A stretch of DNA of 64,000 bases. Origin: Dictyostelium discoideum. Its lineage: Eukaryota. Positions 3,714-63,835 of this stretch are shown here, piece after piece. The notes beneath the pieces were generated by a model. The model was not told the origin of the DNA. It saw only the letters and a program-made list of their open reading frames with translations, and made no database searches. The stretch's first letter is position 1, and each line of letters opens with the position of its first letter. The DNA lies in assembly GCA_000004695.1 (NCBI GenBank), contig CM000151.3:1984001-2048000 (forward strand), written 5' to 3'. The position numbers were made by a program, and so were the translations under genes.

Positions 3714-3753
<40 letters not shown>

Positions 3754-3847
3754 ATACAACCACATTATCGATAAAGGGATTTATTTGTTTTTTTTTTTTT
3801 TTTGTCTTTTTTTTTTTTTCTTCTATTTAATTATTCAATAAAAAAAA

Positions 3848-4067
3848 ATGAATAAAAATCAAAATGATTGGAAAGTTGAATTAAGAAAAGCAACAAGATC
3901 AAGTTTAATTAGTATAACCAATGAAACAGATTTTCAATTACAAAGAATATCATGTAAATTACAACAGGGAATGTTAAGATTAATCCCACCAGGTATGTTA
4001 ACAAGTTTAATTATTTTATGTTTTTCCCCCCCTACAAGTGGTGTGATTGTTGACATTTTATTTTGTG

Positions 4068-4103
<36 letters not shown>

Positions 4104-9555: not shown

Positions 9556-9620
9556 TAAACAGTTTATAAAAAGTTTAAAAGAATTATATTTTTTTTAATT
9601 TTTTTATTTTTAATTTTTAA

Positions 9621-9651
<31 letters not shown>

Positions 9652-9874
9652 AACTAGGATATTATTTGTTTGAAAATTAAAAAAATTAAATCTATAATAA
9701 TAATAATAAAAAAAAAAATAAAAAAAAAAAAATTTAATTGGTGTTTTGCAGGAATTGCATGTGTGAGGTCTTGTTTAACTATGACTTTTTAATTTTTTAA
9801 TTGAATCTATTTTTTTTTTATTATTAATAATTTTTTTTTTTTTTTTTTTTTATTTTTGGAAAAGGAAAGTTTAA

Positions 9875-9918
<44 letters not shown>

Positions 9919-10415
9919 TTTTTTATTTTTTTATTTTTTTTTTTATCGATTTGTTTTATTTTTATAACTTCTTCAAACTTAAAGAAATCAAATTCATATA
10001 AAACAAACCTTTTTATTTAAGATTTCAAAGATTTTAAAAAATTTTCAGTCAAAAAGTTTGTTTTTTGGGGGTCAGATTTTTTTAATTTTAAAGGTTTATA
10101 AATATTTTTAAAATCAAATAATTTTCACCCTAATATTCCATAATGTAGCCTACTTTTTCATTTTAATAAGATAAATGAAACCCGTTCATTGATATTATGT
10201 ACCCTATTTTAATAGATTGCTTATAAAAAAAAAAGTATAAATAAAAATCAAAAAAAAAAAATTTTATTCATTAACAACAATAAAAAAAAAAAATATATAT
10301 ATATAGTTTATTTAATTTATTTAATTTAAACAAAAATAATCTCTCTCTCTTTCTTTATAAATTTATTAATATTTTAATTATTTTTTTTAAAAAAAAAAAA
10401 ATAAAAAAAAAAATT

Positions 10416-19431: not shown

Positions 19432-20583
19432 CACTTTTTACTTTTTACTTTTTTTATTTATTTATTTATTTAATAACTAACAGTCCATTTTCTAAAATAA
19501 ATAAATAAATAAAAAATTTAAAACATAAAAAATAATAATAATAATAAATTTATAAAAATTCAATTTAAATATTTATATATTAAAAAAATAAAAAATAAAA
19601 AATAAAAAAAATAAAAAAGATTTAAGAATGATGGTAGAGATTTAGGAATTTTAATACAATTAGAATCAAAGATTGGTGAAGAAGTAGGAGCATTTAAAAT
19701 AGAGAATTCAAACTTAACAAGTATAGACTATCCATTATTAAAATCATATGGTATGAGTCCTGAAATAGAGAATAGTGGTAGTGGTAGTAGTAGTGGTAAC
19801 AACAATAATAATAATAATAATAATAATAATAGTTTGGTACATGGGGATATAAATATAGAGGAATTAATAAAGAATATGACAATCGATCAATATTACGATA
19901 ACAAAGTATCAATGATGAATATCGTTGATCTTATGCCCGGTAAAGAGATTACAATGATTTCAAAATATTTAAAAGAATTACCAACTATAAAAACTAATAA
20001 CAATAATAATAATAATAATAGCAAACCAAATCCAAATATAGATAGTAGTAATGGAGATGAGATAATATCGATAACCATACCGAAACAGACATCAATAACA
20101 TCACCATTCCCACCAATAAATATAGAGATTACAATCGATGGTGAAGTTAGTATACCACTTCACTCATCGGTATGTCCATCACATCCATCATCAATTTCAT
20201 CATTGACCCTATGTGAGAATATCATATCATCGAAACATGATATCAAAAGTAATTCCTTATTGAATGATGATTTCAATTTACTCATTGGTTTAGAATCAGA
20301 ATTGCATCACAGTGGTTGGACAACATGTACATTATCACCCTCCTCATCACCTCCATTATTATCCTCCTCTCCAAATTCACTACCACCAACCACTGTAATT
20401 TCAACTTTGATAAATTTAAATCAACCAACACCACCACTTGTCGATAGAGTTTCTTTTAACAATGTAGAATATAGTCTAAATAGTTCATCAACAACAACTA
20501 CATCTTATAGTAATAATAAACAAACTATAATTTATAGTTTGAATAATAATGATAATAATACAAATAATACAAATAACAATACA

Positions 20584-20614
<31 letters not shown>

Positions 20615-21955
20615 TAATTTTAAAGTATAATAATAACAAAGAATTTAACCTTTTATTAAAAACCCCAACTTTACCCTCTTCATCGAGTATTTTAAATAAA
20701 TTTTCTTCACTTTCAAAAATTCAACAATTATGTAAAAATAATGATAATAATAGTAATAATAATAATGATAATAATAAAAATAATGATAATAATAATAAAA
20801 ACAATGATAATAATAATAATAGTAATATAGATACAGGTACAGGTTTAGATATAGGTACATTATTGAATATAATATTCACAACATCAAATAATAATAGTAA
20901 TTTAGTAAATAATAATAATAATAGTAGCAATACGATAGTGTCACCACTTTCACAATCAGCACCACCAATTAATAATAATAATAATAGTAATAAAGATATA
21001 TCAATGATTGAACAAAATATAACGACAACATCATCACCACCAACAACAATAACAACAACATCACCACCATTACCAAAACTTCAAGAATCTGGTGAACTTT
21101 TATCAAATATGTTATCGAATTTACCAAAAGCGAAATTAGGGGGATTAAATCAACAAAGTTTAACAGCACCACCATCAGTTGGTAAAGATCTTTCAAATCC
21201 AATTGCAGATTTCATAGCAAGTAGAGCTGCAGCAGGTGGTTCAAGTGGTAGTAATAAACCCAAGAAGGGACCACCACCTAAATTGGGTGGTTTAGGTGGT
21301 GGGTTGAATACCTCAACAGGTGCAGGTGGAATTGGTGATGTTAGAGTACAAAGATTGGCAAGTTATAATAAAGTCAACCAATTATGGAATGTTTCATCAT
21401 CAGATTTTGCACAACGTGTTTCAATTACCCTAAGAGAACTTGAACCCTATGCAATTGATTATGCATTGTCTCATATTAAATCAAAGTGGTGGGACAAGAA
21501 TAGGATAGCAACACTAGCTGAAATCAAATGTATACATTCTATAATCTCTTCAATCATTAATAGTCCAAAAATTAATTTAACATATATTTCTCCATCATCA
21601 TCATCATCAACAAACTCTTCAAATTCAGACGCAAAAGATCAAACATCAACCACTACAACCACCACTACATCATCACCAACTCCAAGTGCTTCAGATGTAG
21701 CAGCAAGTAGATTTTTATTACAAAAAGGTAGTTTTACTGATTTAACAAAATTAATGGGAAAACCACAATCATCATCATCATCATCATTATCACCCTCATC
21801 TTCACTCAATCCTTCACCATCAACCTCATCAAATTCTTTATTATCACCATCATCACCAAGTAAAACGAGAAAAGAGGTAGAGATGGAAATTGATCCAGTA
21901 AAACTGAGATGGATTGTTGAAGAAGTTTTAAATGGTGAAAAAGCGTCAATAGAGA

Positions 21956-21999
<44 letters not shown>

Positions 22000-22919
22000 G
22001 GTAATAAATGGTTTAGTGTAAGTATTGGAGAAACAAAAGGAGGTAGACCTCATATGGAGGATAATCATGTTATTCTTGAGTATCCATATGAATTATATGG
22101 TTTAGAGAAAAAGAAAAGTGTAGATTCAATAGCAGGTGCAAATAGTAATAGTAATAATAATAATAATAATAATAATTGTATAAGTATTTTATCATCAAAT
22201 GAACAATTCTTTTTTGGTGTATTTGATGGTCATAATGGAAAGATAGCAGCTGAATACTCAAGAGTTAATTTACCTTATGAAATTTTTAATAGCTTTATAA
22301 AAATTAACAAAGTTGGCAACAGCGCAAACAATAACAATGTTGATGATTTATGTTTGGAGGCTATCAAACAAGGCTATTTGAATACAGATAAATACTTTTT
22401 AGATTATGCAGAATCTGATAATAAGAAAGCAGGTACAACAGTTGCAACAGTGATCTTGGAAAGAGAAAGATTTATCGTTTCAAATGCAGGTGATACAGAG
22501 GTTGTATTATGTTCAGGAGGCATTGCTGAACCATTGTCAATCATTCATACACCAAAATTAGATACTGAAAGAATACGTATAGAGAGTGCTGGCGGTTCAA
22601 TCATTCATTATGGTACACTAAGAGTCAATGGTTTATTGTCAGTATCTCGTTCCATTGGTGATAAGAATTTAAAAGAATTTATTATACCAAATCCTGATTC
22701 CCACATTCACAATATCAATAAACCCAATGACCAATTCTTAATGATTGCAACTGATGGTCTTTGGGAAGTTTTTAACCATCAAGATGTAGTCAATGAAGTC
22801 CTAAAATTATTACAAGATAAAACTATTCAAAAAGATGATATCTCTTCAATCATTGTTGAAGAAGCAATTAAAAGAAATTCAAAAGATAATATAACTTTAA
22901 TAATTATTTTCTTTAACCA

Positions 22920-22926
<7 letters not shown>
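19225..22926 (+). CDS. Large low-complexity protein with a C-terminal PP2C (PPM-type) Ser/Thr phosphatase domain; join(19225..19364,19620..22926), about 1149 aa
   Basis: Exon 1 MVLNLVSDENGLDISFISYNVTFIDRCAQFTVTLKYKNLSSLPLPL + AA|GTACAT (phase 2). Acceptor AAAAAAG|A at 19620 restores the frame into ...FKNDGRDLGILIQ...MSPEIENSG.... PP2C motifs: GGRPHMEDNH, FFGVFDGHNG, NAGDTEVVL, ATDGLWEV. Poly-N, poly-S/T and GPPPKLGGLGGG tracts. Confidence 0.65.
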
Positions 22927-28542: not shown

Positions 28543-31500
28543 ATGTCTTTAAATAATTACAACAACAACAACAACAACAACCGCAACAATAACAACAACA
28601 ACAATAATAGTAATAATAATAATAATAGTTTTACGAATGATAACTATGCAATTGATACAGAATGGGAAAATAATAAAAATAATAATAATGTAACATCACC
28701 AATATCATCAAATCATAGTTCACCATCTTCGTCATCATTATCAAGATCATCATCTATGTTATTTGGAGAGAACAATGGCACATCACCATTTATATTTGCT
28801 CAATCATTAACATCGGTTTGTTTAGATCCAATGTCACCATTACCAAATGAATGGTCACCCTCAGATTTACAATTACCACAATCATCATCCTCTTCATCCT
28901 CTTCAGCGACAACAGCGACAACAACAAATGGGAATAATGTTATAACATCACCAACATTACAATTTAATAATAGTAGTAATATTAATATTCAATCATTTAA
29001 TAGCTATATTCAAAAGATTAAGCCATATTATAAGATATTCTTAGAGAATAAACAAAAGGATTTAATACCAACAAACAAAAAAACTAAAGAAGAAATCATC
29101 AGTTTAGAGAATATACCAGCATTCTTTTTTAAAAAGGATATGACAGTTAATGAAATTTTAAACTATGCAAATAATGATCCATCACCAATCATATTTCAAA
29201 AGTTGGAACATTATTACACTATAATCGAGGAGAATATAGTTGGTCATGTTCGTGATAAATCTTTATTATTCTTTTCTGCAATGTCTGATTTAAAACAATT
29301 TAGATCTCAATTAATTAATTTATCGAATCATATTAAAAATTCAGAGTAATATATAATTTATAATTTATAATTTATTTTTTAAGTTTTATATATATATTAA
29401 TTTTTTTTAAAAAAAAAAGAGAAACATTAGGTGAAATTGATGATAATATTATACATGGATTAAATATATCAAAATTATTTCTTCAAAAGAATAGAATAAA
29501 GGATACATTAGAAACATTATCATTGGTATCAGAGGTTACACAAGCACAACCCGCATTACAACTTTTACTATCTAAAGGTGATTATATGGGTGCATTGGAA
29601 TTAATCAATAGAACTCAATCAGCTATCTCTTTAGAATTACATTACATTTCATCATTAAAGAATTTATCACCACAATTATTGGAAATGATTAATTTAATCG
29701 AGAAAATGTCATTACAAGATTTTATTAAATATTCATTAAATGATGAAATCCTATTAAGTTCTTCACCAAATAGTAATAATAATTCACCAATTTTTAATAA
29801 ACTTTCTTTAAAAAATAGAAATAGAAATAAAATTAATAGTAGTAATAATGAAGAAAAAGAAGATAATGAAGATTACTATGATGAAGAAGACGATGATGAT
29901 GATGATGATGATGAAAATATAAACTATGAATCATTAAATGAAAATTTAAATAATTATTTATCACCATTAATAATTGTATTATTAAAAGTTGGTAGAATTC
30001 AAGAAGCATTAGAAGAATTTAGAGATGCATCAAATGAATCATTTAAACAACTTTTTAAGAATACTGTTGCAAATATAACCTATCAATTATTGGATAGTGG
30101 TGGTAGTAGTCATCATAAAACACCCACAAACTCATTCAACTCTCAAAATTTCAATTGGAATGATTGTAAATTAAAACTTTTAAAATTATCTTCTAATGAT
30201 TCATTACCATTATTTAAAGCTGTTGAAAAAGCATTTCGTAGGAAATTCATTGTATTTTCAAAAGTTTTAGAATTAATTATAGATATTGTAAATAATAATA
30301 ATGGAATTAATAATAATGGAATTAATAATAATAATAATAAGAATGGTGATAAATCACCAAATATATTTGGTGAAACAGTTATTAATACTTGTAGTACAGT
30401 TGCATATTCAATAATTGAAACTATGCAAGAAAGAATATCATCATTAATGAAAGTTAGGGGTGAAATTAATGCAAAATTGGCATTACCAGATTTTGTATTA
30501 CTCTATAATCAAATTGAATCATTTTTAAAGTTTACTGAATCTTATTCACTTTCAAAAAGAAAAACACCAATCTTAAGATCATCAATATTGGCTCAATTAA
30601 AAATGTTTTTAGATATTCTTCATCAAAATAGATTATCATCATTAAAATTATTATTAGAAAATGAAGATTGGGTACAAGTTAAAGTAGTTTCTGAATTTCA
30701 AAATATTGTAAATAGTATAGTTCAACAATCAACTGATTATAATAATAAAGATAATAATAAAGATAATAATAATAATAATAATAATAATGAAAATAATAAT
30801 ATATCAGATGAAATTTATATAAATAGTGAACCATTTAAAGTTGTAAATACATCATTAATGTTATTGAAATTTATAAATGACTATTTATGTTGTTGTGAAA
30901 AGTTACCAACGATTATTATAGATTCACTTCCAAAGATTATAGAGATTTTAAATACATTTAATAGTATGACTCATCAATTGGTATTGATGGCAGGTGCTAG
31001 ACAAACTATGAAATTGAAAACTATCACTTCCAAACATTTAGGTTATGCATCACAATCATTAAGTTTTCAAATAAAGTTAATACCATATATAAAGGTGATA
31101 GTATCAAGATCATTAACAGTGAAACAGTTATCATTATTGAATGGATTGGATAAGTTGCTACAAGATTTCGTTTCACATAGACAAGAGATTTTCAATAAAT
31201 TTGTGGTTATCATTAAAGAAAGATCAAGTTATCATCTTAAAGTTTTAGGTTCAATAGATTTAAGAGATGATACTTTACCAATTCCAACACCACCAATAGC
31301 ATCACTCTCAAAAGATATTACAACACTTCATAAATTATTAGCTTCAATTTTACCACCTGATCAATTATTTAAAGTATTTACAAATATTTACTTTATGTTT
31401 AATAGTTTATTCATTGAAAATCTTTCAAAGTTTGATATGTCTCATAAATTATCAAAAAGAAGAATACATAATGATGTTTTACATTTATTAAATTCAATTC

Positions 31501-31571
31501 GTAATTTGCCAAATGCTGGTGATCCTGGTAATGATATTGAAGATTATTTAAATCAACATTTTCCAATGTAA
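28543..31571 (+). CDS. vps54: VPS54 (GARP complex subunit); join(28543..29345,29420..31571), about 984 aa
   Basis: Exon 1 ends ...NSE with GA|GTAATA (phase 2). The 74-nt intron ends AAAAAAAAG|A. The N-terminal region ...LEHYYTIIEENIVGHVRDKSLLFFSAMSDLKQFRSQL matches the human VPS54 motif LSHYLDIVEVNIAHQISLRSEAFFHAMTSQHELQDYL. The C-terminal Vps54 domain is ...LVLMAGARQTMKLKTITSKHLGYASQSLSFQ.... Confidence 0.8.
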
Positions 31572-31698
31572 TTAAAAATAAAAAATAAATAAAAAATAAA
31601 AAAATAAAATAAAATAAAATTAAAATTAAAAAATTAAATTGTATATTTGTAACATATATATATTTATTTAAAAAAAAAAAAAATAATAAAAAAATTTT

Positions 31699-33900
<2,202 letters not shown>

Positions 33901-35069: not shown

Positions 35070-36303
35070 TTAAGCAACGGTTTCGATTTTTTCACCACGT
35101 CTCTTGAGGGCAGCGTTACGTTCATCAACTCTTGAACGTCTGACACCTTTACCGGCTGGGAGGGAGACGAAAGTTTGGGAGGCTTTACCAATGATGAAGA
35201 CGTTAGATAAACGAGTGGCGAATTGATGACCAGCAGTATCGGTAACGTGAACGATATCGAAGGAACCTGGATGTTTTTCACGGTGAGTGACGGCACCAAC
35301 ACGACCTAAATTGTGACCACCAACGATCATACATAAGTTGTTGACTTCGAATGGGATGAAAGCAGTGATTTTACCTGATTCAATATCGATTTTAATGGTA
35401 TCGTGGATTGAGATGGCTGGATCTGGGTAACGGATGGTACGACCGTCATCAGTGTGGACGTATGGGATACCTTGGTTACCAGTTTCAACACGGGTGACAC
35501 GGGCTAATTTGAATTTAGCTTCTTCTGGGGTGATTCTTTGTAATGTGAATCTACCTTTTGGATCAAAGAGTAAACGGAAATTTTCCTTGGTCTTTTCAAT
35601 TGAGATGACATCCATGAAACCAGCTGGGTAGTTTGGATCGGTACGGACTTTACCATCAACTTTGACGAGTCTTTGCATTAAGATTAAGGTGACTTCCTTT
35701 TTGGTTAAGGCATACTTTAATCTGTTTCTTAAGACGAGGATTAATGGGAGACATTCTCTTAATTTGTGTGGACCACTTGATGGTCTTGGTGCCCATTTAC
35801 CAGATAATTTATCTAACATCCAGTGATTTGGAGCTGCTAATCTTTTTAAATGTTTCTTTGGACCACGAGCCTATATAAAAAAAAAGAAGAAAAAGGAGAG
35901 GAAAAAAGAGTCGAAATAATTTAGTTTATATTATTAAATATAATTACGTGATTTGATTAATTTTGATGAAATTTGATCAAACACACAAATTATTAGGACA
36001 TGAATAAAAAATGAAAAAAAAGTTAGAGAACTAAATCTTTTTTGATTTTTTTATTTTGGAATTACCGACTCTTTAAGTATCTAACCACATCTTACAATAA
36101 TCAAAACAATCTCTTATCCGGATTAGGGATTGATATTGGATTGATTTGAGAAGGAGCAGTGTACAATAATGAGAGAACCAAATTGATAACAGATTATGCT
36201 AGTATTAAATGATTTCGTAAATGGGTGAACCAATTCAGATTGACCATATAAACTGATAATTTTAAACTGTTATACTATTATAGATTCATAAATCCCATAC
36301 CAT
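35070..36303 (-). CDS. rps4: 40S ribosomal protein S4; complement(join(35070..35870,36301..36303)), 267 aa; first exon is the ATG codon only
   Basis: Exon 2 begins immediately after TTTTATATAG| with [22 protein letters not shown]..., i.e. residue 2 onward of RPS4, and is collinear with human RPS4X to ...GEKIETVA*. The only ATG|GTA candidate upstream is ATG|GTATGG at 36303..36295, which gives a 430-nt first intron. Confidence 0.75.
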
Positions 36304-36829
36304 CTTTGTATATGTTTTTTTGAGGAATCGACAAAAAGGATGAATGAAAAGTTGAAAATAATTTTTAAATACCCTCGCGTAAAAAAAATTTTGAAAAAAA
36401 AAAAATTGAAAAAAAAAAATTAAAAAAAAAAAAAATTTCCGAAATAATTGATATCGTTACTGTCAAAATTTTTCAACCTTTTTTCTGTTTCATGTGTTTT
36501 TTGAATTTAATTAATATCCATACTTTATTTTTTTAACAAAAAAAAAAAAAATAATAAAAAAATAATAAAAAAATAATAAAAAAATAAAAATAGTAAATTA
36601 TTTTATTATTTTTAATATATAAAAAAAAAAAAAACCCTTTTTAAATACCAAAAAAGAAATAAAAAAAAAAAAAAAAAAAAAAAAAATTCAAAAAAAAAAA
36701 AAAAAAAAAAATTAAATTTCATATTTTTTTTTTTTATCCTATAAAACAAAGCCTGACTCAAAAAAAAAAAAAAAAAAAAATATTTGTTTAGATCTCATTA
36801 AATAAATCTTAAATGATACATTTTAAAAT
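36304..36829. promoter_or_regulatory. Divergent intergenic region between rps4 (minus) and the IRE1-like gene (plus)
   Basis: About 526 bp with A-rich runs. No motif was verified. Confidence 0.3.
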
Positions 36830-39503
36830 ATGACAAAACCAATATTTAAAAGTAAAACCAAACCATTAGGGTGGTCTAAAATATCAAGTAAGGAAGTTAT
36901 TAATGAAGATGAAGAAGAAGAGGAAGGAGGAGAAGAAGGAGGAGAAGAAGAAGAAATAGATAATAATAAAAACAGTAATAATAGTAGTAGTAATAGTAAT
37001 AATAATAATAATGATAACAATAATAACAATGGTGAAGAAAGGAAGGTAGAAAAAGAAGAAGAGAAAGAAGAAATTAATCATTATAGAAATCAATTTGAAA
37101 AAGATTTATTAGATATGGAATTAAAAGCATTAAATAGAGAAACAATTGATAATATTTTAAGTGGTTTAAATTCCTATGAAATTTTTAAAGAAGTTAATTT
37201 CGATTTTGAAAAGTTATATTCAATAATTATTAGTGAACCTCCACCATTATTTGATACTTTCTTTGATTCAGTATCTTCATTTGAAATCTTCTTTACAGAT
37301 TGTTTAATTCTATTATGTAGTAATTTCCCAGACGGTATTGATACATCAATTACACGTCCAAATTTTAATGATTTTTATAATCATTTTAAAGATAGGTTAG
37401 TAGTATAGTAATAATAATAATAATAATAACTATTATTATTTTTCACTGATTATAATATTTATAAAATAAAATTACTAATATATTTCTTTTTTTTTTTTTA
37501 AAAAAAAAAGAGGAGTTATAAATAAATATATTTCAAGAGAAAATATTCACAAAGCATTAAATGATAAGTTAATGACAGATTATTTTAATTCAGGTATATA
37601 TTTAGGATTGTTGGATACTTTAGATATAGCAGCCATTAGATTTATAACGATATTTGGAAAGTTTTTATCATATGAGGTTGTAGAGACAATCAGTAATTCA
37701 TTATTTAGATATAGAACAGACAAAATTGAATTTCTATCAGATATTATTAGAGAATTATTATTATGTAATGAAAAATATAGAACATTATCAAAAAGTTACG
37801 ATTTAGTTCAAAAGAGATTACAAAAAGAAGAATTTACATTTATTAAAGTGTTTGAAGATGATGATCCAAAATTATTCTCAGCATTATATCAACCCCCTGA
37901 TATAATCAAGTTAATTACAGAACCAGAAAAAGATTCAGGGTTTTGGTGTATGATTGGAATATTTAAATCAAAGAGGATTTTAGATTATCTTATAAGAACT
38001 GAACCAAGTAAGAGTTGGTTCAAAGGTAAAGAATCTGATTACTTTTTTTCAATAGCGGAAATGGGTGGAAAATATTTCAATTGGACATTATTGGAACCAA
38101 AATTAATTAAAAAGGAAGTTAATCAGAAATCATTAAAAGGTGTAATACCACCAAGGGAATTGAATAGTCAACAACGTAATACTCAATTCTTTCGAGTTTT
38201 CAATGGAGTTACAGGGTTCAATGATATACGGTTTGTTTATGCCAATCCATCATTAGCTCAACATGCAATAAAATTTATTCAAAAGGTGACTGAATGTGGT
38301 CTATTTTTAAATACTGATGTAAGAAATGTTAGAGATTCCATACCAAATTCCAATAGTTTTCTATTTAGAAAATTCTTAGAGGTTAATTTTTTCTATAGAT
38401 ACGAAAAAGACAATGAGGTATATCAACATCAACCAACTGAAGAAAACTCACTCTTATACTCAACATCAATCATTTCAAGAATTGTGGAAATGGAAGTAAC
38501 TGATCTTTTATCAGTGGTTCTTAAAAATTTAACTCAACAAGGTTGTTCATTAGCACGTGAAGCCGTTGATGAGAGATCTTTGTTAAGTACAATTCATTCG
38601 GATAAATACTATAATAGTTCAATTGTGGTATTACATAATTATTGGCCAATTCCACCAAAGTTTTGTGATTGTTCAACATCATTTATTTCAATGGCCAATG
38701 GTAAATTGCCTAGAACCTATTCTGGTAGCGATGGTGTTATACCTTATATATTTTTCGCTAGAAATCATTTAACACTTGGATTCTTACTATCAATTCATAA
38801 TAATATCACCGATACCATTGATATTAATCATTGGATTTCCGTTGCGATATCTGGTGGACTTTATTATGACAAAGAGGAAATCTTTAGGAAATATCCATTA
38901 CTTCAAAAAGAATCTACACTTCAAAAATATCCAAGACCAGTTAATATTTTAGAATTTCAAACTTTATTAGAAAATAATGAGTGTATCGAATATATCGCCA
39001 GAACTTTCATTAAAGAAATTCCACCTCATGAAGTACCAACTGTTAAACATTCAGATTTACTCATACTCTTTGAAATTTCAGTTATGAAAAAAAGATCAAT
39101 TAGATCAAAAGAATCACTTCAAGCTGAATTAGATTTAATTGAAGAAGAAAAAAGAGAAAAGAAAAAACAAAAAGATAAAAAGAAAAATAAATCAAATCAA
39201 AATCAAAAAAATAATAATAATCAAAATAATCAAAGTAATAATAATAAAATAAATTCACCATCATCAAATAAACTCACTCAAAATGTTACTCCACCATCTT
39301 CACCTGTAAATATAATAACTTCATCATCAACTACATCATCAAGTACATCATCAACAACATCATCAACAACATCATCAACTATAGAACCAAAACCGCCAAC
39401 ACAAACATTACCAATAAAAACATCATCACCAACCAAACCAGAATCACAAAAACCATCAACTCCTGATCCATTAATCCCCAAATCTTCAAAATCAACTACA
39501 AAA

Positions 39504-39581
<78 letters not shown>

Positions 39582-39708
39582 GAAAATAGAGAAATGGCTT
39601 TAGAGGTTATAAATGAAATGGAAAAAATTGAAATTGAGGAATCATTATTATCAACATCTTCTTTGGTACAACCACAACAACAATCACAACAATCACAACA
39701 ACAACAAG

Positions 39709-39800
<92 letters not shown>

Positions 39801-41240
39801 GAAAAACAACAAGAACAACAAGAACAACAAGAATCTATTCAATTAAATCAAACCCTAACACCAATAATACCAGATTTTCAAATTGGTAAATTTAAATTTA
39901 GTAGAGACGAAAATAATATAATAGGGAGAGGATCAAATGGTACATTAGTATTTAGAGGAATTTGGAATGACAGAATACCAGTCGCTGTTAAACAAATGCA
40001 AAAAGCTTTCAATCCTCATATTAGTAAAGAGATTGAAGTATTAATTCGTTTAACGAGTAATAATTGTTCAAATATGATTAGATATATAGATCAAGAAGAG
40101 GATCAATTATTTGTTTATTTAGGTTTAACTTTATGTGAAGAGTCATTACAAGATTTAATGGAATCTAAAAGGTATAAAGAATTTATAGAGAAAACCACCA
40201 CTACCAATATTACAACGACTTTTAATAATAATATTATTGATGAAAATTTATATGAACAAAGAATATTAAGTCTTTTTAAAGATGTTATTAATGGAATTAA
40301 CTTTTTACATTGCCAAGATATTGTACATAATGATTTAAATCCAAGAAATATTTTAGTACATAAGGGTAACTTTGTTATATCAGATTTAGGACTTAGTAAA
40401 ATGCAAGTTGAAACATCATATTCATTTACAAATAATGCACCAACTGGTCAAGAAGGTTATCATCCAATTGAAGTACTTCAAGAGAAACGTAAAACTAAAT
40501 CAGTGGATATATTTTCATTGGGTTGTATTTTATTTTATCTTTTAACCAATGGTCAACATCCATTTGGTAATAATAAATTATTAAGAGTTGCAAATATTGT
40601 CTATGATAAACCAGATTTAGAGCCATTGAAATTTAATGCACCTGCCTTGGATTTAGTTAGATTAATGATTTCCCAAGATGAAAAGAAAAGACCAACCATT
40701 GATACCATACTTAATCATCCATTGTTTTGGTCAACTAATGAAAAAATCAAATTTTATGAATCTTCTTTAAACCTTTTAAAAGATCCAAATAATTCTCAAT
40801 CAAAACATAGTAAACTATTGAATTATTATCAAAATGATAATAGTGGTGGTGTATTATTTTTATCAAAACCTTGGAATCAAATTATTGATCCATTTTTAAT
40901 TGATCATGTTGAAAATAATAATAATAATAACAATAACAATAACAATAATAAACAAAACTCTAAAAAGTTAGCAATAGTTGCATATCAATACGATCAAGTT
41001 AGAGATTTAGTTCGTTGTATTAGAAATTCCTTGGTTCACCATAAGGATATATTAAGATCAATCACTCAACAACAAAACTTACCCCCATCCTCAAAGGAAT
41101 TTGCCAATGATTGTCTAAAAAGTCAAGAATCTGTACTATTATATTTCGAATGTAAATTCCCTGACCTATTATTTCATTTATATCAACAATTTAAAAAATC
41201 AGATTTCAATTCTAAAGATTATTTAAATATAAAGTTTTAG
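36830..41240 (+). CDS. IRE1-like protein (Ser/Thr kinase + C-terminal KEN/RNase-L-type ribonuclease domain) with a long non-lumenal N-terminal region; join(36830..37395,37511..41240), about 1431 aa
   Basis: Exon 1 ends ...HFKD + AG|GTTAGT (phase 2). The 115-nt intron ends AAAAAAAAAG|A. Kinase: [12 protein letters not shown]...[34 protein letters not shown] domain: [14 protein letters not shown]...[10 protein letters not shown]...FPDLLFHLY, matching human IRE1 HPFFWS...RNKKHHYREL...FPHLLAHTY. No signal peptide or TM. Poly-N(32) and poly-Q(40) tracts. It resembles the irl (IRE-like) family, but member identity is not determinable from sequence alone. Confidence 0.8.
39513..39581 (+). repeat. 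(AAT)n microsatellite encoding poly-Asn in the IRE1-like gene
   Basis: Seen directly in the sequence. Confidence 0.9.
39706..39830 (+). repeat. (CAA)n microsatellite encoding poly-Gln in the IRE1-like gene
   Basis: Seen directly in the sequence. Confidence 0.9.
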
Positions 41241-41585: not shown

Positions 41586-43977
<2,392 letters not shown>

Positions 43978-44795: not shown

Positions 44796-48812
<4,017 letters not shown>

Positions 48813-50472: not shown

Positions 50473-50531
<59 letters not shown>

Positions 50532-52271
50532 ATATATTCTTACAGTATGTTTTTTAATTATTGATTTAACTTCATCTTTTTCTTTATTTGATTTATTAGT
50601 TATTAAAATATCAGCTATAGTTTTCCAAAATGAATTTAAAACTTTAATTTCATTATCTAAACAAGTTTCAAATTCATGTAGTATATGATTTGCACTCGCC
50701 AATTCATTATTTTCAAATTGTTGATTCGATAAGATTTTAGATTGTTTTAAAGAGGTTGAAATATAATGATAATTATTAATTTGAAAAATTACAGATTTAA
50801 TTGGTGGTTTAAAGAAATCAGTTGCAGGTTGAGTTGGAAAATCTTTTTTCGCTCTACCTTGTAAATATTTAATTAAATTTTTTAATATCTTTTCTAAGAA
50901 ACCAATAAATGATGTAGGTAATATTGTTGAAGATGCAGAATTTGATGATGATGATGATGATGATGAAGATGAAGATTTACTATTTGAAGAGGTTGATGAT
51001 GGTGCATTACTATTGCTGTTACTATTATTATTATCTTGACCTTTTAATAATAATTCAACAGAATGTTTATATTCAATTAAACGTTTAAAATAATTGATCA
51101 TATTTGAAGAGATTTCATCAACAGTTGCATCAGAGATGATTTCTTTTCTATTTGAACTTGAAATTTCTTTTTCTTCATCCAATGAGAAATCTAATAGAGA
51201 GGCACAAGTATCTTGTAAATGTTTAATTTGAGTTTTTAATTCACTAATATGTTTACCATCTCTTGAACTGATTGCAGTGATAAAGTCTGGTAATAGTTTA
51301 GTAAAAGTATCGAATAGATCTAGTAATGGGAAAATACTGAAGATTTTATCACCAGGCGTTTTTCTTACTTTAATGATTGGTTCAGTGGTTTCCAAGAGTA
51401 GTTCATGGGCAGGGTCAATGATTTCGTCGAGAATCAATTGATATTGGTTGCCAAATAATTCACTTGCCAAATCGTACTCTATCTGATAGAGACGCAATGT
51501 TTCTTGAACGTAGGAAATCAGTGGATGGGATCCCTTGACGTAGGCGAGGTTCTTGGTTTCACTGGTTTGTTTTATGAATTTCTCAGGCGCCATTTTACGG
51601 AGTGACAAAAGGATGAATTTCGATCGCTTATCTTTATACTCTTTTAAGAATGCATTGTAATGTAGTTTTTCAAATAGTTCAATATATTTGGAGATCTCTT
51701 CGACGTGGTTGGGTAGGATGATTGCTAGATAACGCTTGGAGTTGGGTAACTTCGCTATGGTGGTTGGGTCGACCAAATTGCTGATTTTGAGAAGCAATGA
51801 CTTGAAGCTGGTTTCAAGCTCGTTCAAGCCGGTGGCTTTCAATTGTTTCAAAGCGTCCATCACCTTGTCTGACGACTTGAAGTGCGATTTCTCGGCAATG
51901 TAGTCGATGGCATTGCCGACATGCTCCAATGCCAGCATGTACGACACGTAGTCTCCCTTGGCGCCGTCGTTGATTTTGGAGTCGATCTTATCGACGTCGA
52001 ATTTGTCCAGTACCGATTTCACCTGCTCCATGGTGGAATTAATATTATTGAAAATGCTCGACCACTCATTCATCGATGCATTGATGGGAGCCACATCCAT
52101 CTCCAATTGGGACAAGCCTTCATTGAATCGATCCAATATATAAATCATTTGCTTTGACATTGAATTGTTTTTCTCTAATTGCTCTTTTATGAATTGTAAA
52201 TCACGTTTATCATTCTCCAATTGGTCGTCCTGTTCGGTCAATTCCGAGGTCGCATTGTTTTTCCACGACAT
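50015..52271 (-). CDS. exoc7: Exocyst complex component Exo70; complement(join(50015..50114,50272..50399,50544..52271)), about 651 aa
   Basis: N-terminus MSWKNNATSELTEQDDQLENDKRDLQFIKEQLEK... aligns residue-for-residue with the human EXOC7 start (...FIRDSLEK 27 aa in). Main exon ends ...KKHT|GTAAGA. Acceptor ATTTTAG|AATTTC gives NFLKTFNDLNKLKFDIPDQELKLKLKTEAKNIIGRSYDQFKE + TT|GTAAGT (phase 2). A 157-nt intron carries (ATC)n. The last exon L..LEKIHLEKNFVPFETTDDINRKLDRVFDSQ* is the Exo70 C-terminal signature. Its acceptor could be 50115/50116 or 50109/50110; both are in frame. Confidence 0.75.
50136..50213 (+). repeat. (GAT)n/(ATG)n microsatellite (about 25 units) within the last intron of the Exo70 gene
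   Basis: Seen directly in the sequence. Confidence 0.9.
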
Positions 52272-52407
52272 TACCACCAAATTACTGCTTTTCAAAGCAC
52301 CTGTAGATTGAACTGTTGTCACAGAGTATTCAGAGTTTAATAGATTTCTAATATGCTCAAACTCCTCATCATCAGCTTCTGTTGGTGTCGCATAAAATAG
52401 CTAATCA

Positions 52408-53249: not shown

Positions 53250-55714
53250 ATGGCTAATGAAATAATTACACCTACTGAAGGTGAATTAAAAAGTAAGTAT
53301 CCCCTTTTTATTTTTTTTCATTTTATTTTTATAGTATTTTAAATTAAATTATTAATTTTTATTATAACATAAAAAAAAAAAAAAAAAAAGCTATCATTGA
53401 TAAAACAGCAGCATATGCAGCAAAATTAGGTGAGAGTTTTGAAAATAAAGTTAAACAAAGAGAAGGACACAATGCAAAATTTAATTTTATGAAAGAAGGA
53501 GATCAATATTATCCTTATTATAGAAATAAAATTGTAGAGAATAAAGCAAAAATTCAAGCAGATGCAGCAGCAGCTGCCGCAGCTGCAAATCCAAAAACTC
53601 CTTCTACTACCACCACCACAACAACAACCACAACAGCAACAACACCACTACCAACAGCAACAGCAACAACAACATCACCAACTCCAACAACATCATCAAC
53701 TATAGTACCAGTACCTCAAACAAATTCAACTCAACAACTACAACAACAACAACAACAACAACAACAAACAACACCAGTATTTGAAAAACCACAACCTCCA
53801 CCCCCACCACCACCAAAAAAAGAACCAACACAACCTGATCCACTTTTATATATTTTAGATGTACCTGATTTTATGACCCCATTAGAATTGTAAGTTGTAA
53901 AATTAATTAATTTTATTGTATCTATCATATTAATTTATTAATTTTTTTTTTTTTAATAATTATTACTCTCTAGAGATACAATTAGATTAACAGCACAATT
54001 TATTGCAAAAAATGGTGATAGTTTTTTTATGGAATTAGCAAGTAGAGAAGTAAAGAATAGTCAATTTGATTTTTTAAAACCAACCAATCATTTGTATGAA
54101 TGGTTTAGAGCATTGGTAGAATCCTATGCTCAAATTATATATCCACCACAAGGTATAAAGGAGCAATTAAAGTCAAACTATTTCTCCAATAAACAAACCA
54201 TTCTAGAGAGAGCAATGAATCGTTGTGAATATAATCAACTCAAAGAGATTGAGGAACAAAAGAAAGAGGAGCGTGAGGATGAGGAGAAAACAATCATTGC
54301 CTCAATTGATTGGCATGATTTTGTAATTGTAGATACCATTGAATTCAATGAGGATGATTTAGACGACTTACCACAACCAAGAACATTTGACCAACTGATT
54401 GCTGGTGATACACCATTTGGTGGCAGTGATTTCGATAATGATGGTCATGGTTCAAATGGTAAAGGTGGTCAAGATATGGAGATGGAGATGGATATGGAGA
54501 TGGAGATGGATGATGAAGATAATAATAATAATGAGGATGAGATTGAAGAATCATCATTATCGTCAACAAATACAACAGGTAATTTACCACCAAAAGATCA
54601 ATCAAAATTAAAAATTGTTAAAGATTATCAAAAATCAAATTCATCTGTTAAATCTAATGCACCAACAAAATTAACTCAGTTATGTCAATTTTGTAAACAA
54701 GAGATACCATTGGACGAAATGCAAGAACATATGAGAATTGAATTAATTCAAAAACAACAAAGAGATTCGAGATTGGGTGGTGGTGGTAGTAGTAATAATA
54801 ATAATAATTTAACAAATACTTTAACTCAAGATGACGATATCGCAAGAAATCTTCAATCATTTGCAAGTAAAAGAGTTGATATCTTTGGTGAAACAGAATC
54901 TTCTAAGAAACAAGATGAACAACCAACTCAAGCACCAAAAGTTATTTGGGATGGTCATTCTGGTAGTATTCCAAGAGTACAAGCTGCTCAACAAGCTGCT
55001 CAATTAGCTGCTCAACAAGCTGCTCAACAAAAAGCTGCTGCTATTGCTGCTCAACAAGCATCTCAGCAACAAGCATCTCAACAACAACAACAACAATTAC
55101 AACCACCACAACCAATTGGTATTCACCATCATCCACAACGTCATTTACCACCAGGTATGATGCCTCCTGGAATGATGCCACCTGGAATGATGCCACCAGG
55201 TATGATGCCACCTGGAATGGTACCACCACCACCATTTGGTATGATTCCACCTGGAATGGTACCACCACCACCACCAGGTTTAATGATACCAACTGCACCT
55301 CCAGGATTAATGATACCACCAACACAACAACAACAATTACCTCCCCAAACAAATACATCCCCATCCTCATCCTCTTCAATTAAAGTTGAAGAACCTCAAT
55401 CTAAAAAGTTAAAGATTGATGATGTATTAATTCCTGAATCAGTTTGGTTACAAAATAATCCAAACCCTGTCAATTTAACAGTAGAAATGGCTGATAAAAG
55501 TAATATTTATCAAATTACACTTCAACCAACCGATAGTATATCTTTATTAAAAGAGAAAATTAAAGAACTTAATGGTATGCCAACTAATAAACAAAAATTA
55601 CAAGCTCCTGGTTTATCAATTTTAAAAGATACTTGTAGTATAGCTTTTTATAATTTAAAATCATTAGCAATAGTTACTTGTGGTCAAAAAAAAAAAGGCG
55701 GTAAAAAGAAATAG
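53250..55714 (+). CDS. sf3a1: Splicing factor 3A subunit 1 (SF3a120/Prp21), with SURP modules and a C-terminal ubiquitin-like domain; join(53250..53292,53391..53889,53974..55714), about 760 aa
   Basis: Exon 1 MANEIITPTEGELK + A|GTAAGT (phase 1). Acceptor AAAAAG|CT leads to TIIDKTAAYAAKLGESFENKVKQREGHNAKFNFMKEGDQYYPYYRNKI (SURP1), ending ...TPLE + TT|GTAAGT (phase 2). Acceptor CTCTAG|A leads to LDTIRLTAQFIAKNGDSFF...FDFLKPTNHLYEWF (SURP2), ...ASIDWHDFVIVDTIEF..., MQEHMRIELI, KVIWDGHSGS, a PPGMMPPGMM repeat, and Ubl ...IYQITLQPTDSISLLKEKIKELNGMPTNKQKL.... All are collinear with human SF3A1. Confidence 0.85.
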
Positions 55715-58309: not shown

Positions 58310-60097
58310 CAAAAAAAAACAGACTGTTGATAAAGTTAATAAATTTTTAGAAATTTTATTAGAAGAAGATTCAGATTATATAAATATAGAATATATACCA
58401 ATGATGGAAAATATTTTAAATAGAGTTTATTCAACAAATTTATCTACAACATTAATAAAACCATCTCCAAGAATCTTTAATTTCATATTGAATTTAGGAA
58501 AATTACAAGTTGCTGATATTGAAAATCATAAAAAGTTCATTCCAATGTTACGTTCACTTTTGGCAATTTTAGCAATTAATAATATTTCATTTTTAAAATT
58601 AACAAAATTCATTTTTCGTTTAGTTCATATAATTTGTGATATACCACTTTCAAATTATTCTTTTGAAAAAAGACAAACAATTTTTAAAAATCATTATTCT
58701 TCAATTATTCCATTTATTTTTGAAAATTTTATAAATGTAATGTATAAATAAATAAATAAATAAATAATATAAATAAATAATATAAATAATAAAAATAAAT
58801 ATTAATTTTTTTTTTTTTTTTTAAATTTTATATAAAAAAATAGTGTAAAGATGATTTAAATATATTAAAAAATTTATTTGGTGAAATTGTTGAACAATTT
58901 TCATATCAACATTTATTATCATTAATTCAAAATAATAGATTTGAAAAGGTAACATTAAATATTATATCATCATTGAATGCTGGACCAACATTGGAAAAGA
59001 ATATAATGTCAATATTTAATACAATAGTTTGTTTCATTAATTATGATATTCTAAGGGATGATGCATATCAATTACTTGAACATCATATGGCAAATTTTGG
59101 TTGTTACTTGGCAGAGTTACATTCATACATTTTACCATTGGTTTATAAACAACAACATAATTTCCCAATATCAACTTTTAAAGCTTACTTTAAATCTCAT
59201 GAACTTTTAACATTATCACAATTTCCAATTTTATTTAAAAATTTATCAACAACAAGAATTGATATTATTAATCATACTTTATTAACACATAATAAAGAAA
59301 TTATTGAAACTGTAAGTTTAATAATAATTAATAATAAATAAATAAATAAATAAATAATAATAATAATTACTTACCCCTCCCCCCTTTTTTTAAAAAATTA
59401 ATTTTTAAAGCATTTTTATAATTTTATACCAAAATTATTAGAAGTTTTATTAGATAATACTATTGAAAGACCATATTATGTTTTACCAAGTATTGGATCA
59501 TCAATTCAAACAATTGGAAAGAATGAATTTTTTGATAAAGTTGTATTGAATATTTCAAATCATTTATTTTCAATAAAAGTATTAAGATTAGATAATTATG
59601 ATGTTGGTTCAATTGGTGAGATTATATTGGGTTTATTTAAAATTTATAAGGCATATTCAAGGGATTATGTTAATCTTTGGAATTTAGGTATTAATACATT
59701 TTTATATTATTTAAATACAACTTCAACTACAATGTATTTAATACCATATGTAAAGGATATATTAGAGAAGTATCCAATTGATTCAATACCATACGTTAAA
59801 CAATTTGAAGAGAAATTATTAAAGAATTTTGAAATCATTTCAATAAATTCAACAAATAAAGAAATCATTGATCAATATATAGAACTATTTGAAAAGTTAT
59901 CCACTATTAAATATTTCAATTATCTATATAATTATAATTTAAAACCACCCCAATTACAATCATCTTTAAATTCTTCAAATGGTTCTTTGCCAAATTTCAC
60001 TCCTCTTCAAAAATCACAATCAATAAATTCTTTCTCTGGTTCTTCTTCAAATAATTCATTATATAAATCACAATCAATTACAATAATTCATGGTGGA

Positions 60098-60131
<34 letters not shown>

Positions 60132-63100
60132 CATCATCGTCATCTTCAAATGTATTAAATAATAGTAGTAACAGTTTAACAAAATCAACAAGTAATGGCG
60201 TACTATCATCATTTGTAATTCATAAATTTACATTAAATAAGATAATTGATTCTTTAAAATTAGTTAATAGTAAATTTAAGAATCATAAGATTAATCATTC
60301 AATTTTAAAGATTATAGCATCATTATTTAATGAATTTGGTATGGATAAGAAAACTGGTAATATTAAACATATAATTGGTATTTTGAATCAACATGAAATT
60401 GTAGACTTGATTAAATCTTATAATTTAAATAACTCTTTGATTTTATCATCAAATTCAATTTATCAATTGTTTTCATTGGATATGGTTAATGGTATTGGTA
60501 ATGATATTAAAATCTTATTCAATCAATTAGTTAAAGAATCACGTTCTTTCATTTTACAATATTCAAAACAATTCATTAGAGATTTAGTAATAAACTCTGC
60601 TTTAATTGATCAAACTAGTTATGGTAATCAAAATAGTCTATTCATTGGTGACCAGAAATTCAATCACATTCGTTCCTTTTTTAATTTCATTATTTCAATT
60701 AATGGTGACACAATTAATAATTATCTATTGGAAGTTTTATTATTATATTCAAAATATTCAAAAATAAATAATAATAATAATAATAATTCAACTTCTTTAT
60801 CATCACTCTCTTCCTACTCATCAAAGAATTATTATAATCAAGGTAATGAATTATTGGAGAAATTAATTTGTTTTTTAATTGAAGATAATAATCATTTCCC
60901 ATTAAGTCAATCAAATTTAGATTATATTATTCAATTAAGAAGTAAAACTTCTCAACATTTTGTTGAAAGAATTTGGAAAGTTTATGGATTAGAAACTCTT
61001 AAACGTTCAAAATATTTCGATCGTTATTATGAAGTTGTTTCAATTAGTAATACAAAATTTAAATTATCAACAGCTATATTAAATAATATTAATAATAATA
61101 GTAATAATAATACTACAACTATTAATGTTCCAACAAGATCACCATTATCACCAAGACCTTCTGATAATAAAGATTTAACAAATGAAGTTTTACCATCAAG
61201 TAGTAGTAGTTCTATTAGTAGTAGTGGCGGTGGTGGTTCAACCCCATTAGATTCATCATCAACAACAACTACTCCTTCAAATTCATCAGTTACAAGTAAT
61301 AATGGTGGTGATGGAAGTAGTAGCAGTGGCAGTAGTGTGACAAGTAGTGTCGTATCATCACCAGTTGTTGGTGTAAGTGGTGGTGTTAAAACTACATCAA
61401 CTTTAACAACAATTACAAAAACAACATCAGTTGTCGAAACTAAGGTTAATAGATATTCAAATATATCTGGTAATGGTGACATTATTAAATCTTCAACTAC
61501 TGAAATCCTTGAAAAACCAACACAAATCTCATCGGTAACTGAAACTAAAGTTAATAGATATGCAAATATCTCTGGTAATGGTGATATTATTAAACCTTCA
61601 ACTAATGAAGTCCTTGAGAAACCAACACAACTCTCATCGGTTACAACTTCAAAAGCTACCAATAGTACACCAGGTGTTCATACTGCTGCAGGTATTGAAA
61701 TTCTACCAAATAAACAAAATCGTTATTCAAATATCTCTGGTAATGGTGATATTCAAGAATCTGGTAAAACTACATCATTAGCTTATCTTGATAAACCTTC
61801 TTCTTCCTCATCATCATCAAATGAAAATAAAGTTGATCAAACTGCTTCAATTCATAATAATCCTTCAATAGCTACTCATACAACTGGTAGTAGTCATAGT
61901 TTCTTAAAACCTTCAAATAGTGGTGTAAATGTTTTAAATAATGAAATTTATAAACCAACTTTAATTTCCCAAAATTTAATAAATAATAAATTATTATCAC
62001 CAACTTCAGCAACAACAACAACTACCACAACTACAACTACTACATCACCATCATCGTCAACAACAACAACAAACAATTATAATAAAACATCAACAAGTAT
62101 TTCACCAACAATTTCATCTACATCATCAAATTATTCATCACCATATGAATCATTACCACCAAGTCCATCAGTTTCAACAACAATGATTAAACAAAGTAAT
62201 TTTACAAGATCACCATCAGGTAAATCATATCAATTTATTAAATTAAAGAATCATATTGATGATTATGGTTTCTTAATTTTAAATGAATCAAATAAACCAG
62301 TTGTACAACTTGATTCAAAATTGATAAGTTTAATTATTAAACATTATGTAAATGATTTAACAATTGATATAAAGGATAAAATTGATATATTAGGTACAGT
62401 TTCAAGAGAATTCTTTAAATTATTATCAATTGAATTATCAAATCTTAAAACAATTTGTCATTTCATTAGATCAAAACCATTGGTAAATGAATATGATACA
62501 ACTCAATTATCAGATTACTCTTTAATTAAATCAATACCAAATTGTTTTTCAATGGATTCAATTCATAAATTTCCTTTAGTTTTTATTTTATCAAATCATA
62601 ACAAATTATTTAATCAAGTTAATACATTAGAAATTAATCCAAAATCATTATATACTTTTGATTTAATTAATTCTTCAGAACAACAACAACAACAACAACA
62701 ATATCCATTATTAAAAAATTTAATAATTACAAATAATGTTGGTGAATGTGTTAATCCATCATTTAATGGTGAAGATATTGCTTTCCAATGTTTAAAAAAT
62801 TATATTGATCAATTAGAGAGATTGGATTTAAATTATAATTATTCAGGTTTATCATTGGATGGTGCAATGGATTTGGAAAAAGATTTAATAGATTGTCAAC
62901 TTTTAAATGAATTAAATTCATCAAAGAATACTCAATTAAAAACTAGAATCTCTTTGAAGTCAATTCATTCAATGTCAAGTTTAACAGTTTTGTATAATAA
63001 TTTATTATGTAAAAATTTGAAAACACCAATGGTGCCCACTTCAAACACTACTACTACGAATCCTACAATTGTTCTTGTTGAAAATGGGGTTAGTATTAAT

Positions 63101-63835
63101 CAATGTAAATCAATCTTGATTGATGTTAAATTATCAAAACAATGTAAAGATTCAATAATTGATGGTGAACAACAATTTAAAGTTCAAATGGTACCTTTTT
63201 TTAGATCTTTAGATATTCATTATCCAGAGAATGATTTCATATTTAAGCATCCATCTGATAGTTATTTAAATTTACAAAGTTTATCAATTAATTTAAATAC
63301 TAGTACTGCTAATATTGGTAATGGTGGTGGTAGTGGTTCAAATACTCCTTCAAGATCTTCACCAATTCCAGGTGGTGCTGGTGCTGGTACTGGTACAAAT
63401 ATTGGTAATTCACCTGTTGGATTTTCACAATCAACATTTTTAAATCTATATTTAAAGAATAAGAAAATTAAATTATCAAAATTAAAGTTTAAAACCAATT
63501 CATTATCTTTAATTAATCAATTGTTAACTCAATCTCAATTTGAATCATGTTCAAACTCAATTAAAACAATTGAAATTTTAATTGATTTAGATACAAGTAC
63601 AATTCATTATGATCACATGTCTATCATTAATGGTGATTTCTTTGCTTCAGATTTAAATCAATTATTTTCCATTTTGGAAAAGAATAAATCAATTGAAAAG
63701 GTTATTATTTCAACTTCAAATGATCACAATGATATGATTTTCATTGATAGAGATCATTGGAATAGAATTAATACTGGTTCTTTTAAACCAATTAGATTAA
63801 ATTCTTTAAATTTGTTTGAAAGATTTTTATCATAA
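57459..63835 (+). CDS. Large (roughly 1900 aa) uncharacterised protein, at least 6 exons. Confident exons: 57459..57530, 57672..57894, 58323..58736, 58844..59311, 59411..63835. A probable additional exon begins at 58013; its 3' junction is unresolved
   Basis: ATG MATSTTTTLNFQITTIIIQITSEN|GTAAGT. Acceptor TATAG|GCAGAT gives ADKLSIENSIKSFNSLIGKTYKD...KFDEFI + G|GTATGT (phase 1). Acceptor TATAG|AA restores the frame in EYMKWAESEDRLRGEIAINILCTMEGYSYFKNFENGLDFLSQFDYFKLSIT.... Exon from AAACAG|ACT: TVDKVNKFLEILLEED...FENFIN|GTAATG. Acceptor AAATAG|TGT: CKDDLNILKN...HNKEIIET|GTAAGT. Acceptor TTTAAAG|CAT: HFYNFIPKLLEVLLDN... through the 1429-aa ORF to TAA 63833-63835. There is no family-level match I can name; S/T/N-rich tracts and an internal 3x tandem repeat are present. 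Confidence 0.55.

Follow-up and report, generated by a model that had tools for sequence, protein, structure and literature searches.

A soluble IRE1-like (Irl) kinase-KEN gene beside rps4 in Dictyostelium discoideum and the predicted ankyrin-like fold of its N-terminal domain

We analysed a stretch of 64,000 nucleotides from the genome of Dictyostelium discoideum (assembly GCA_000004695.1, contig CM000151.3, positions 1,984,001 to 2,048,000), referred to here as the window, whose positions are counted from its first letter. On the plus strand, between positions 36830 and 41240, the window carries a two-exon gene which, judged by its lack of a membrane anchor, its conserved N-terminal region, its kinase signature and its KEN (kinase-extension nuclease) domain, is a member of the dictyostelid Irl (IRE-like) family. 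The list of open reading frames (ORFs) contains two frames on this strand, 36830-37408 and 37572-41240, which are joined into a single continuous frame by the removal of one intron. The spliced coding sequence starts with the ATG at 36830, comprises 4296 nt and encodes a protein of 1431 amino acids (aa) with one terminal stop, while retention of the intron would end the protein at the in-frame TAG at 37406-37408. The features of the gene are compiled in Table 1.

Table 1. Features of the irl gene and of its upstream region, in window positions and protein residues.
Feature	Position	Strand	Description
Intergenic region	36304..36829	.	526 bp, shared with the head-to-head rps4; extremely A/T-rich, long poly-A tracts, no coding potential
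Exon 1	36830..37395	+	aa 1-188 and 2 nt of codon 189; low-complexity head rich in acidic residues and N (aa 1-81), then the first conserved N-terminal-domain helices (aa ~82-188, from the family alignment)
Intron	37396..37510	+	115 nt, GTTAGT...AG, 9.6% GC; AG acceptor at 37509-37510
Exon 2	37511..41240	+	aa 189-1431 plus stop codon
Helical-repeat domain, N-terminal half (predicted)	37073..38096	+	aa 82-384, split by the intron; helix hairpins repeating every ~32-38 residues; moderate model confidence
Variable segment	38097..38462	+	aa 385-506; poorly predicted; one conserved helix at aa ~433-456; large indels among relatives
Ankyrin-like repeat subdomain, conserved (predicted)	38463..39092	+	aa 507-716; ~six helix-turn-helix units; contains a 26-aa insertion specific to the window protein
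Charged helix and lysine-rich stretch	39093..39179	+	aa 717-745; R[ST]KES[IL]QAE.DL[IL]E; kept in 4/5 aligned proteins (the T. lacteum protein lacks it)
Low-complexity linker	39180..39884	+	aa 746-980; S/T/P-rich tract, poly-N25, poly-Q30, Q/E-rich tract
Protein kinase domain	39885..40730	+	aa 981-1262; carries a T/N-rich insert; Pfam Pkinase and PDB matches
KEN RNase domain (HEPN-type)	40716..41237	+	aa 1258-1431; poly-N12 loop insertion at aa 1324-1335

The same locus had been described in an earlier note on this DNA, made from the sequence alone, and its placement of the gene at 36830-41240 is confirmed by the spliced model. The note mentioned no intron, and its protein start and length nevertheless agree with the two-exon structure. 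Some of its measurements need correction. The N-terminal region, given as about 900 aa, amounts to 980 aa before the kinase, of which about 235 aa form the low-complexity linker; the kinase and KEN domains together occupy approximately 450 aa rather than 430; and the uninterrupted homopolymers reported as poly-N(32) and poly-Q(40) are runs of 25 asparagines (aa 854-878) and 30 glutamines (aa 923-952). Such homopolymeric N and Q coding tracts occur in a window that is very AT-rich, with a GC content of about 0.13-0.30. A further run, N12 (window 40914-40949), interrupts a KEN-domain loop shortly before the catalytic tyrosine, and the relatives carry N/T/Q-rich insertions of variable length at the same site, which indicates that this loop tolerates expansion. 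The head-to-head arrangement with rps4 across 526 bp proved exact, given that the first exon of rps4 (minus strand, 35070-36303) consists of the ATG only, at 36303-36301. This short exon is followed by an intron of ~430 nt, and exon 2 of rps4 starts at 35870 (GCTCGTGGTCCAAAG...).

The C-terminal part of the protein was identified by Pfam, with both matches above the gathering scores, as a Pkinase domain at residues 990-1261 (E value 1.2e-35) and a Ribonuc_2-5A (KEN) domain at residues 1285-1420 (1.6e-09), the latter coinciding with the region of about 1290-1420 in which the note had expected it. When the kinase-KEN region was compared with all PDB sequences, the best matches were yeast and human IRE1 (3e-43 to 1e-39), followed by EGFR, an unrelated kinase (5e-21), and RNase L lay outside the best 60 matches. 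The motifs HPLFWS (aa 1258), IRNSLVHH (aa 1359) and FPDLLFHLY (aa 1405) were located, and those previously quoted as lining up with human IRE1 are present and aligned to human IRE1alpha. The KEN tetrad Y1347/R1360/N1361/H1365 aligns with Y892/R905/N906/H910 of human IRE1alpha and also with pig RNase L, and it is invariant in 6 family members. The Ire1/RNase L-type pair is thus complete, as had been claimed, with both domains found and the KEN catalytic residues intact. A profile built from the KEN domains of the family alone matched the whole domain of pig RNase L at 6e-07, with the Y, the RN..H and KFPDL shared, and human IRE1alpha at 3e-06; since these matches are about equal, the KEN domain alone does not discriminate between the two proteins, while the kinase does and favours IRE1.

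The kinase domain retains the glycine loop (GRGSNG), the VAVK lysine (K1016), the alphaC glutamate, the catalytic aspartate (D1130) with its asparagine, and the aspartate of the DFG motif (D1147). It also deviates from the canonical kinase at several motifs, having HND for HRD (Arg to Asn), DLNPRN for DLKPxN (catalytic-loop Lys to Asn), DLG for DFG, and GQEGYHPIE for GT..APE. The kinase motifs are invariant in five dictyostelid relatives, and the deviations, among them the PTGQ.G.HP.E motif, are identical in D. purpureum, D. firmibasis, Polysphondylium violaceum and Tieghemostelium lacteum; they are accordingly a selected family signature rather than decay, and these family-specific motifs are under purifying selection. 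Phosphotransfer by this domain is uncertain, and the HND motif, which makes this a non-RD kinase, suggests that activation may not need phosphorylation of the activation loop. These deviations match a remark in the Dictyostelium kinome paper that the IRE-family members except IreA have no Ser/Thr at PKA position 201 (PMC1420674).

The protein has no recognizable membrane anchor. Its N-terminus is lysine-rich and hydrophilic, with no signal peptide; the Kyte-Doolittle mean over 19 residues peaks at 1.55, in a segment that includes D, D and R, so that no transmembrane (TM) segment was found; and neither Pfam nor PDB searches of the protein gave a match to the lumenal domain of IRE1. A missed 5' exon encoding a signal peptide or TM segment was considered and rejected: the 526 bp up to the rps4 ATG contain no plausible coding exon, their sole plus-strand ORF being a K-rich, low-complexity peptide of 27 aa, and the other full-length gene models of the family, from four further species, likewise have no convincing TM segment or signal peptide. 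The hydropathy, the intergenic region and the relatives therefore bear out the earlier statement that signal peptide, lumenal domain and TM segment are absent. The same note called the protein cytosolic, and of this the lack of an anchor is established, whereas the placement itself is an inference; the lysine-rich stretch conserved at aa 730-745 might just as well be a nuclear localisation signal.

All the relatives that we found are dictyostelid social amoebae. The family is listed in dictyBase and UniProt as irlA-irlF ("probable serine/threonine-protein kinase irl"). The syntenic ortholog in D. purpureum (XP_003282980) follows a gene with FNIP repeats and rps4 (on the minus strand), in the same order as in the window; between these two orthologs the kinase-KEN module is ~60% identical and the N-terminal region ~31%. 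In Acytostelium subglobosum (DF837595.1), rps4 (minus strand) stands head-to-head with a gene of 892 aa without a Pfam match, and 53 bp further on there is a kinase-KEN gene of 399 aa. The DNA across both annotated genes (2116-6200) contains a single continuous ORF of 1211 aa (2565-6200), from which it follows that the public annotation mis-splits a single Acytostelium ortholog. The position next to rps4 is thus kept in D. purpureum and Acytostelium, which dates the gene and its location to the early Dictyostelia. D. firmibasis (CM069769.1) has two Irl paralogs in tandem, the second of which, at 9017-12420, lies directly downstream of the first (P0002) and was matched by tblastn to the N-terminal subdomain and the kinase start; the pair indicates a local tandem duplication within the family. 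No Irl paralog was found elsewhere within the window.

The existence of this family and its soluble nature are already known, since the Dictyostelium kinome of Goldberg et al. (2006) counted seven kinases in the IRE family, each with an RNase(L) domain, of which only IreA is membrane-bound (PMC1420674), and the window gene is accordingly not a new discovery. Three points may be new: the rps4 synteny of irl, the mis-split Acytostelium gene model, and the prediction of an ankyrin-like fold for the input domain, by which the architecture would converge on that of RNase L. As a separate observation, four proteins from ENA assemblies (P0007-P0010), of ~500 aa, start directly at a kinase with the canonical HRDLKPQN, followed by a KEN-like domain, and have no N-terminal sensor region; from their sequences they appear to be another class of soluble kinase-KEN proteins.

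The N-terminal region has a narrow distribution. An exhaustive HMMER search of 1.84 billion representative proteins returned 4 matches (E values from 4e-36 to 4e-08), all of them dictyostelid proteins with the same kinase-KEN C-terminus, and hence the region occurs, among these representatives, only in dictyostelid kinase-KEN proteins. Word-indexed protein searches with the single sequence or with a 5-sequence alignment gave no match, and Pfam and PDB sequence searches with this region gave nothing even at E <= 10. Within the family, homology extends over aa ~110-745 and is strongest in aa 507-716 and in the charged helix that follows, after which come unrelated low-complexity linkers whose sequence and length are not kept among relatives. 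Because the poly-N and poly-Q tracts are specific to the window copy and absent from its orthologs, the idea that they have a function was rejected.

Two AlphaFold2 (AF2) models, built from 5-6 sequences, predict for this region an all-helical repeat domain of ~650 aa with an ankyrin-like fold. Their mean predicted local distance difference test (pLDDT) is 62-64 and their predicted template modelling score (pTM) 0.48-0.59. The first model was made from the translation of exon 2, leaving out aa 82-188, and its pLDDT falls below 50 at model residues 196-243 and 268-318, in the variable segment; the second, of the T. lacteum protein, spans the equivalent region at low confidence. The structure prediction proposed in the earlier note as a check on this region has therefore returned the same ankyrin-like fold twice, at medium confidence, and we regard an ankyrin-like solenoid as the probable fold of the domain. 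The charged helix at aa 717-745 could act as a coiled coil or dimerisation element.

Based on these results, the window gene probably encodes a soluble Irl-type endoribonuclease that, by analogy with IRE1 and RNase L, would be activated by dimerisation or oligomerisation and regulated by its N-terminal repeat domain. The output module of IRE1, that is, the nucleotide-binding kinase and the KEN RNase, is kept intact, and the lumenal sensor and TM segment are replaced by three elements: the predicted helical-repeat domain of ~650 aa, the conserved charged helix, and a disposable low-complexity linker. Regulation or sensing would fall to the repeat domain, which would keep the enzyme monomeric or inactive until the binding of a ligand or a partner protein drives self-association. 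The kinase domains would then bind nucleotide and pair back-to-back, as in IRE1 and RNase L, the pairing would assemble a KEN dimer, and this dimer would cut its RNA targets in a metal-independent manner via Y1347, R1360, N1361 and H1365.

Several observations weigh against this interpretation. Our literature search turned up neither biochemical nor genetic data for any Irl protein, and nothing on Irl function or on an ankyrin-like fold of Irl N-termini. That fold rests on the two medium-confidence AF2 models, and the other searches for it gave weak or non-significant matches. Foldseek gave no match at E <= 0.001, the best being AnkB (0.013), with RNase L in 27th place (0.3) and ARM/HEAT proteins mixed in; ankyrin repeats were not significant by Pfam in six proteins (E <= 10), in a profile search against PDB sequences, or with an ankyrin-repeat (ANK) hidden Markov model made from 19 repeats. 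Alignments of profiles by hhalign to designed and natural ANK domains, run with reversed and column-shuffled controls, reached at best a P of about 0.05-0.16, while the marginal alignments sit in the register predicted by the models, for example against DG.TPLHLAA..GHLE.V..LL..GA; the alignment of the putative repeat units to one another by MAFFT was too noisy for a repeat profile. Regarding the output module, the HND motif, the catalytic-loop Lys to Asn change and the missing APE may indicate a kinase that is atypical or weakly active. Moreover, a paralog of 649 aa from A. subglobosum (P0006) has no Y...RN...H segment in its KEN domain, the Pfam match covering its last 39 residues only, and its N-terminal region is shortened to the conserved subdomain. 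This protein may have degenerated and lost its RNase activity, or its gene model may be wrong, and RNase activity need not extend to all members of the family.

The same deviant motifs, together with the truncated KEN domain of P0006 and the mis-split Acytostelium annotation, which demonstrates that errors occur in the gene models of this family, could be taken to mean that the window protein is an inert scaffold, with a pseudokinase, a dead RNase or both, or else a true IRE1 whose membrane-spanning N-terminus was missed. We consider this very unlikely. The window protein has the residues essential for ATP binding and phosphotransfer as well as the four catalytic residues of the KEN domain, and none of them varies across the family; the sequence up to the rps4 ATG is devoid of coding potential, the full-length models from four further species have neither signal peptide nor TM segment, and the kinome paper reached the same conclusion of solubility (PMC1420674).

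Within the interpretation of a regulated soluble RNase, two more specific versions concern the nature of the activating signal. Ankyrin-type solenoids are generally protein-binding modules, and IRE1 is the closest homolog, so that the protein could be a cytosolic or nuclear sensor of proteostasis or of another stress, IRE1-like in its operation, in which the repeat domain binds client or partner proteins rather than a nucleotide, and clustering, possibly mediated by the conserved charged helix, activates site-specific RNA cleavage or a decay resembling regulated IRE1-dependent decay (RIDD). The response of Dictyostelium to endoplasmic reticulum (ER) stress, which is partly IreA-independent and has no known XBP1 or HAC1 target, would leave room for such a sensor; the 2018 review that reports this regards IreA as the only IRE1 ortholog and leaves the other family members aside (PMC6025073). 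However, our analysis links the gene to no particular stress, and the rapid divergence of the N-terminal region fits a conserved housekeeping sensor poorly; we judge this version rather unlikely.

For the second version, a lineage-specific expansion with tandem paralogs and a fast-evolving input domain (31% against 60% identity) would correspond to the usual pattern of defence or conflict genes. The protein would be a functional analogue of RNase L, in which the ankyrin-like domain binds a 2'-5'-oligoadenylate (2-5A)-like or other nucleotide messenger, produced by an enzyme of the OAS/CD-NTase type upon infection or exposure to foreign RNA, and the ligand dimerises the protein, which then degrades RNA broadly in an innate-immune or abortive response. 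The order of an ANK-like domain, a kinase and a KEN domain is that of RNase L, and the family KEN profile matches pig RNase L slightly better than IRE1. In addition, a 2023 study reported that OAS-related proteins exist in amoebozoans and that a few proteins outside the RNase L clade gained ANK repeats independently (PMC10400998). According to the same study, RNase L itself arose in jawed vertebrates, when a kinase-RNase protein gained ankyrin repeats, and the OASb proteins, the type present outside jawed vertebrates, are not functionally coupled to RNase L (PMC10400998). Furthermore, the Irl kinase is IRE1-like and looks catalytically competent, unlike the pseudokinase of RNase L, the ANK assignment is at the fold level only, and, since the repeat domains cannot be aligned residue by residue, the positions contacting 2-5A (in RNase L, ankyrin repeats 2 and 4 together with the kinase N-lobe) cannot be mapped. 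We hold a 2-5A-type analogue to be improbable, and give an equally small chance to the broader proposal that the Irl proteins are independently evolved, RNase-L-like innate-immune effectors in which a cryptic ankyrin sensor binds a nucleotide messenger or a pathogen molecule and the dimerised kinase-KEN module causes RNA decay.

The neighbours of the irl gene are ordinary housekeeping genes, encoding Vps54, a FNIP-repeat protein, Rps4, a Vps5-type BAR protein, Exo70, a PRP21/SF3a (SURP/ubiquitin) splicing factor and a large PP2C, and show no functional clustering with it; the Vps5-type BAR gene is convergent with the irl 3' end. The ranges noted for these neighbours are 29523-33531 (of which the FNIP gene occupies 31699-33531), 41586-42446, 50523-52322, 54029-55714 and 19753-22926. 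Two long ORFs, 44796-47162 (minus strand, 787 aa) and 59546-63835 (plus strand, 1429 aa), have no Pfam match at E <= 1e-5; the latter is close to the Irl protein in length and unrelated to it by tblastn.

IRE1 and RNase L represent the two known wirings of a kinase-KEN RNase, one responding to ER stress via a lumenal domain and the other to antiviral 2-5A via ankyrin repeats, and the dictyostelids hold a whole family of soluble, IRE1-derived enzymes with an input domain that has never been characterised. If this domain is a divergent ankyrin solenoid, the architecture of RNase L was invented at least twice, and Dictyostelium would in that case be a convenient genetic model for finding out which signals such enzymes respond to and which RNAs are their substrates. 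The family could help to explain the IreA-independent part of the Dictyostelium stress response. Should the innate-immune version be true, evolution would have arrived at the OAS-RNase L logic a second time, convergently and outside vertebrates, in an amoeba that is amenable to genetics. The window gene itself is a catalogued and functionally blank member of a known family, which would not surprise a specialist in Dictyostelium kinases, and its value is that of a lead for experiments rather than of a discovery.

In comparison with its own paralogs, the window protein has the same architecture, the same kinase signature (with the [YF]HP ending) and the same conserved N-terminal subdomain, and differs by its own poly-N and poly-Q tracts and by the insertion of 26 aa in the repeat domain. 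With IRE1, Ire1p and IreA it shares a kinase directly fused to the KEN domain, the best sequence match of the module, the Y/R/N/H tetrad, a Ser/Thr-rich activation segment and, presumably, an RNase switch that depends on the back-to-back dimer. It differs from them in having no signal peptide, lumenal sensor or TM helix, the place of which is taken by the putative helical-repeat domain and the low-complexity linker, and in its non-RD kinase with the Lys to Asn change, DLG for DFG and no GT..APE.

The comparison with RNase L concerns mainly the layout. Both proteins are soluble and follow the order of repeat domain, kinase-like domain and KEN domain, the Irl repeats being ankyrin-like by prediction, and the family KEN profile aligns end-to-end with pig RNase L. 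The earlier description of the layout as RNase-L-like rather than IRE1-like, with a soluble N-terminal region before the kinase and KEN domains, is thus supported by the domain content, the lack of an anchor and the predicted fold. In contrast to RNase L, the Irl kinase resembles the active kinase of IRE1, the ankyrin repeats are undetectable by sequence, the repeat region is approximately twice as long, a charged and low-complexity spacer of ~260 aa precedes the kinase, and the family is found in Dictyostelia only, RNase L having arisen in jawed vertebrates (PMC10400998). Membership of the RNase L family was rejected on the basis of the nearest kinase-KEN match (IRE1, 3e-43), the rank of RNase L outside the best 60, and the dictyostelid origin of all relatives. 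Since the kinase-KEN module is IRE1-like by sequence, any resemblance to RNase L is one of architecture and not of descent, and the shared arrangement is most likely the result of convergence.

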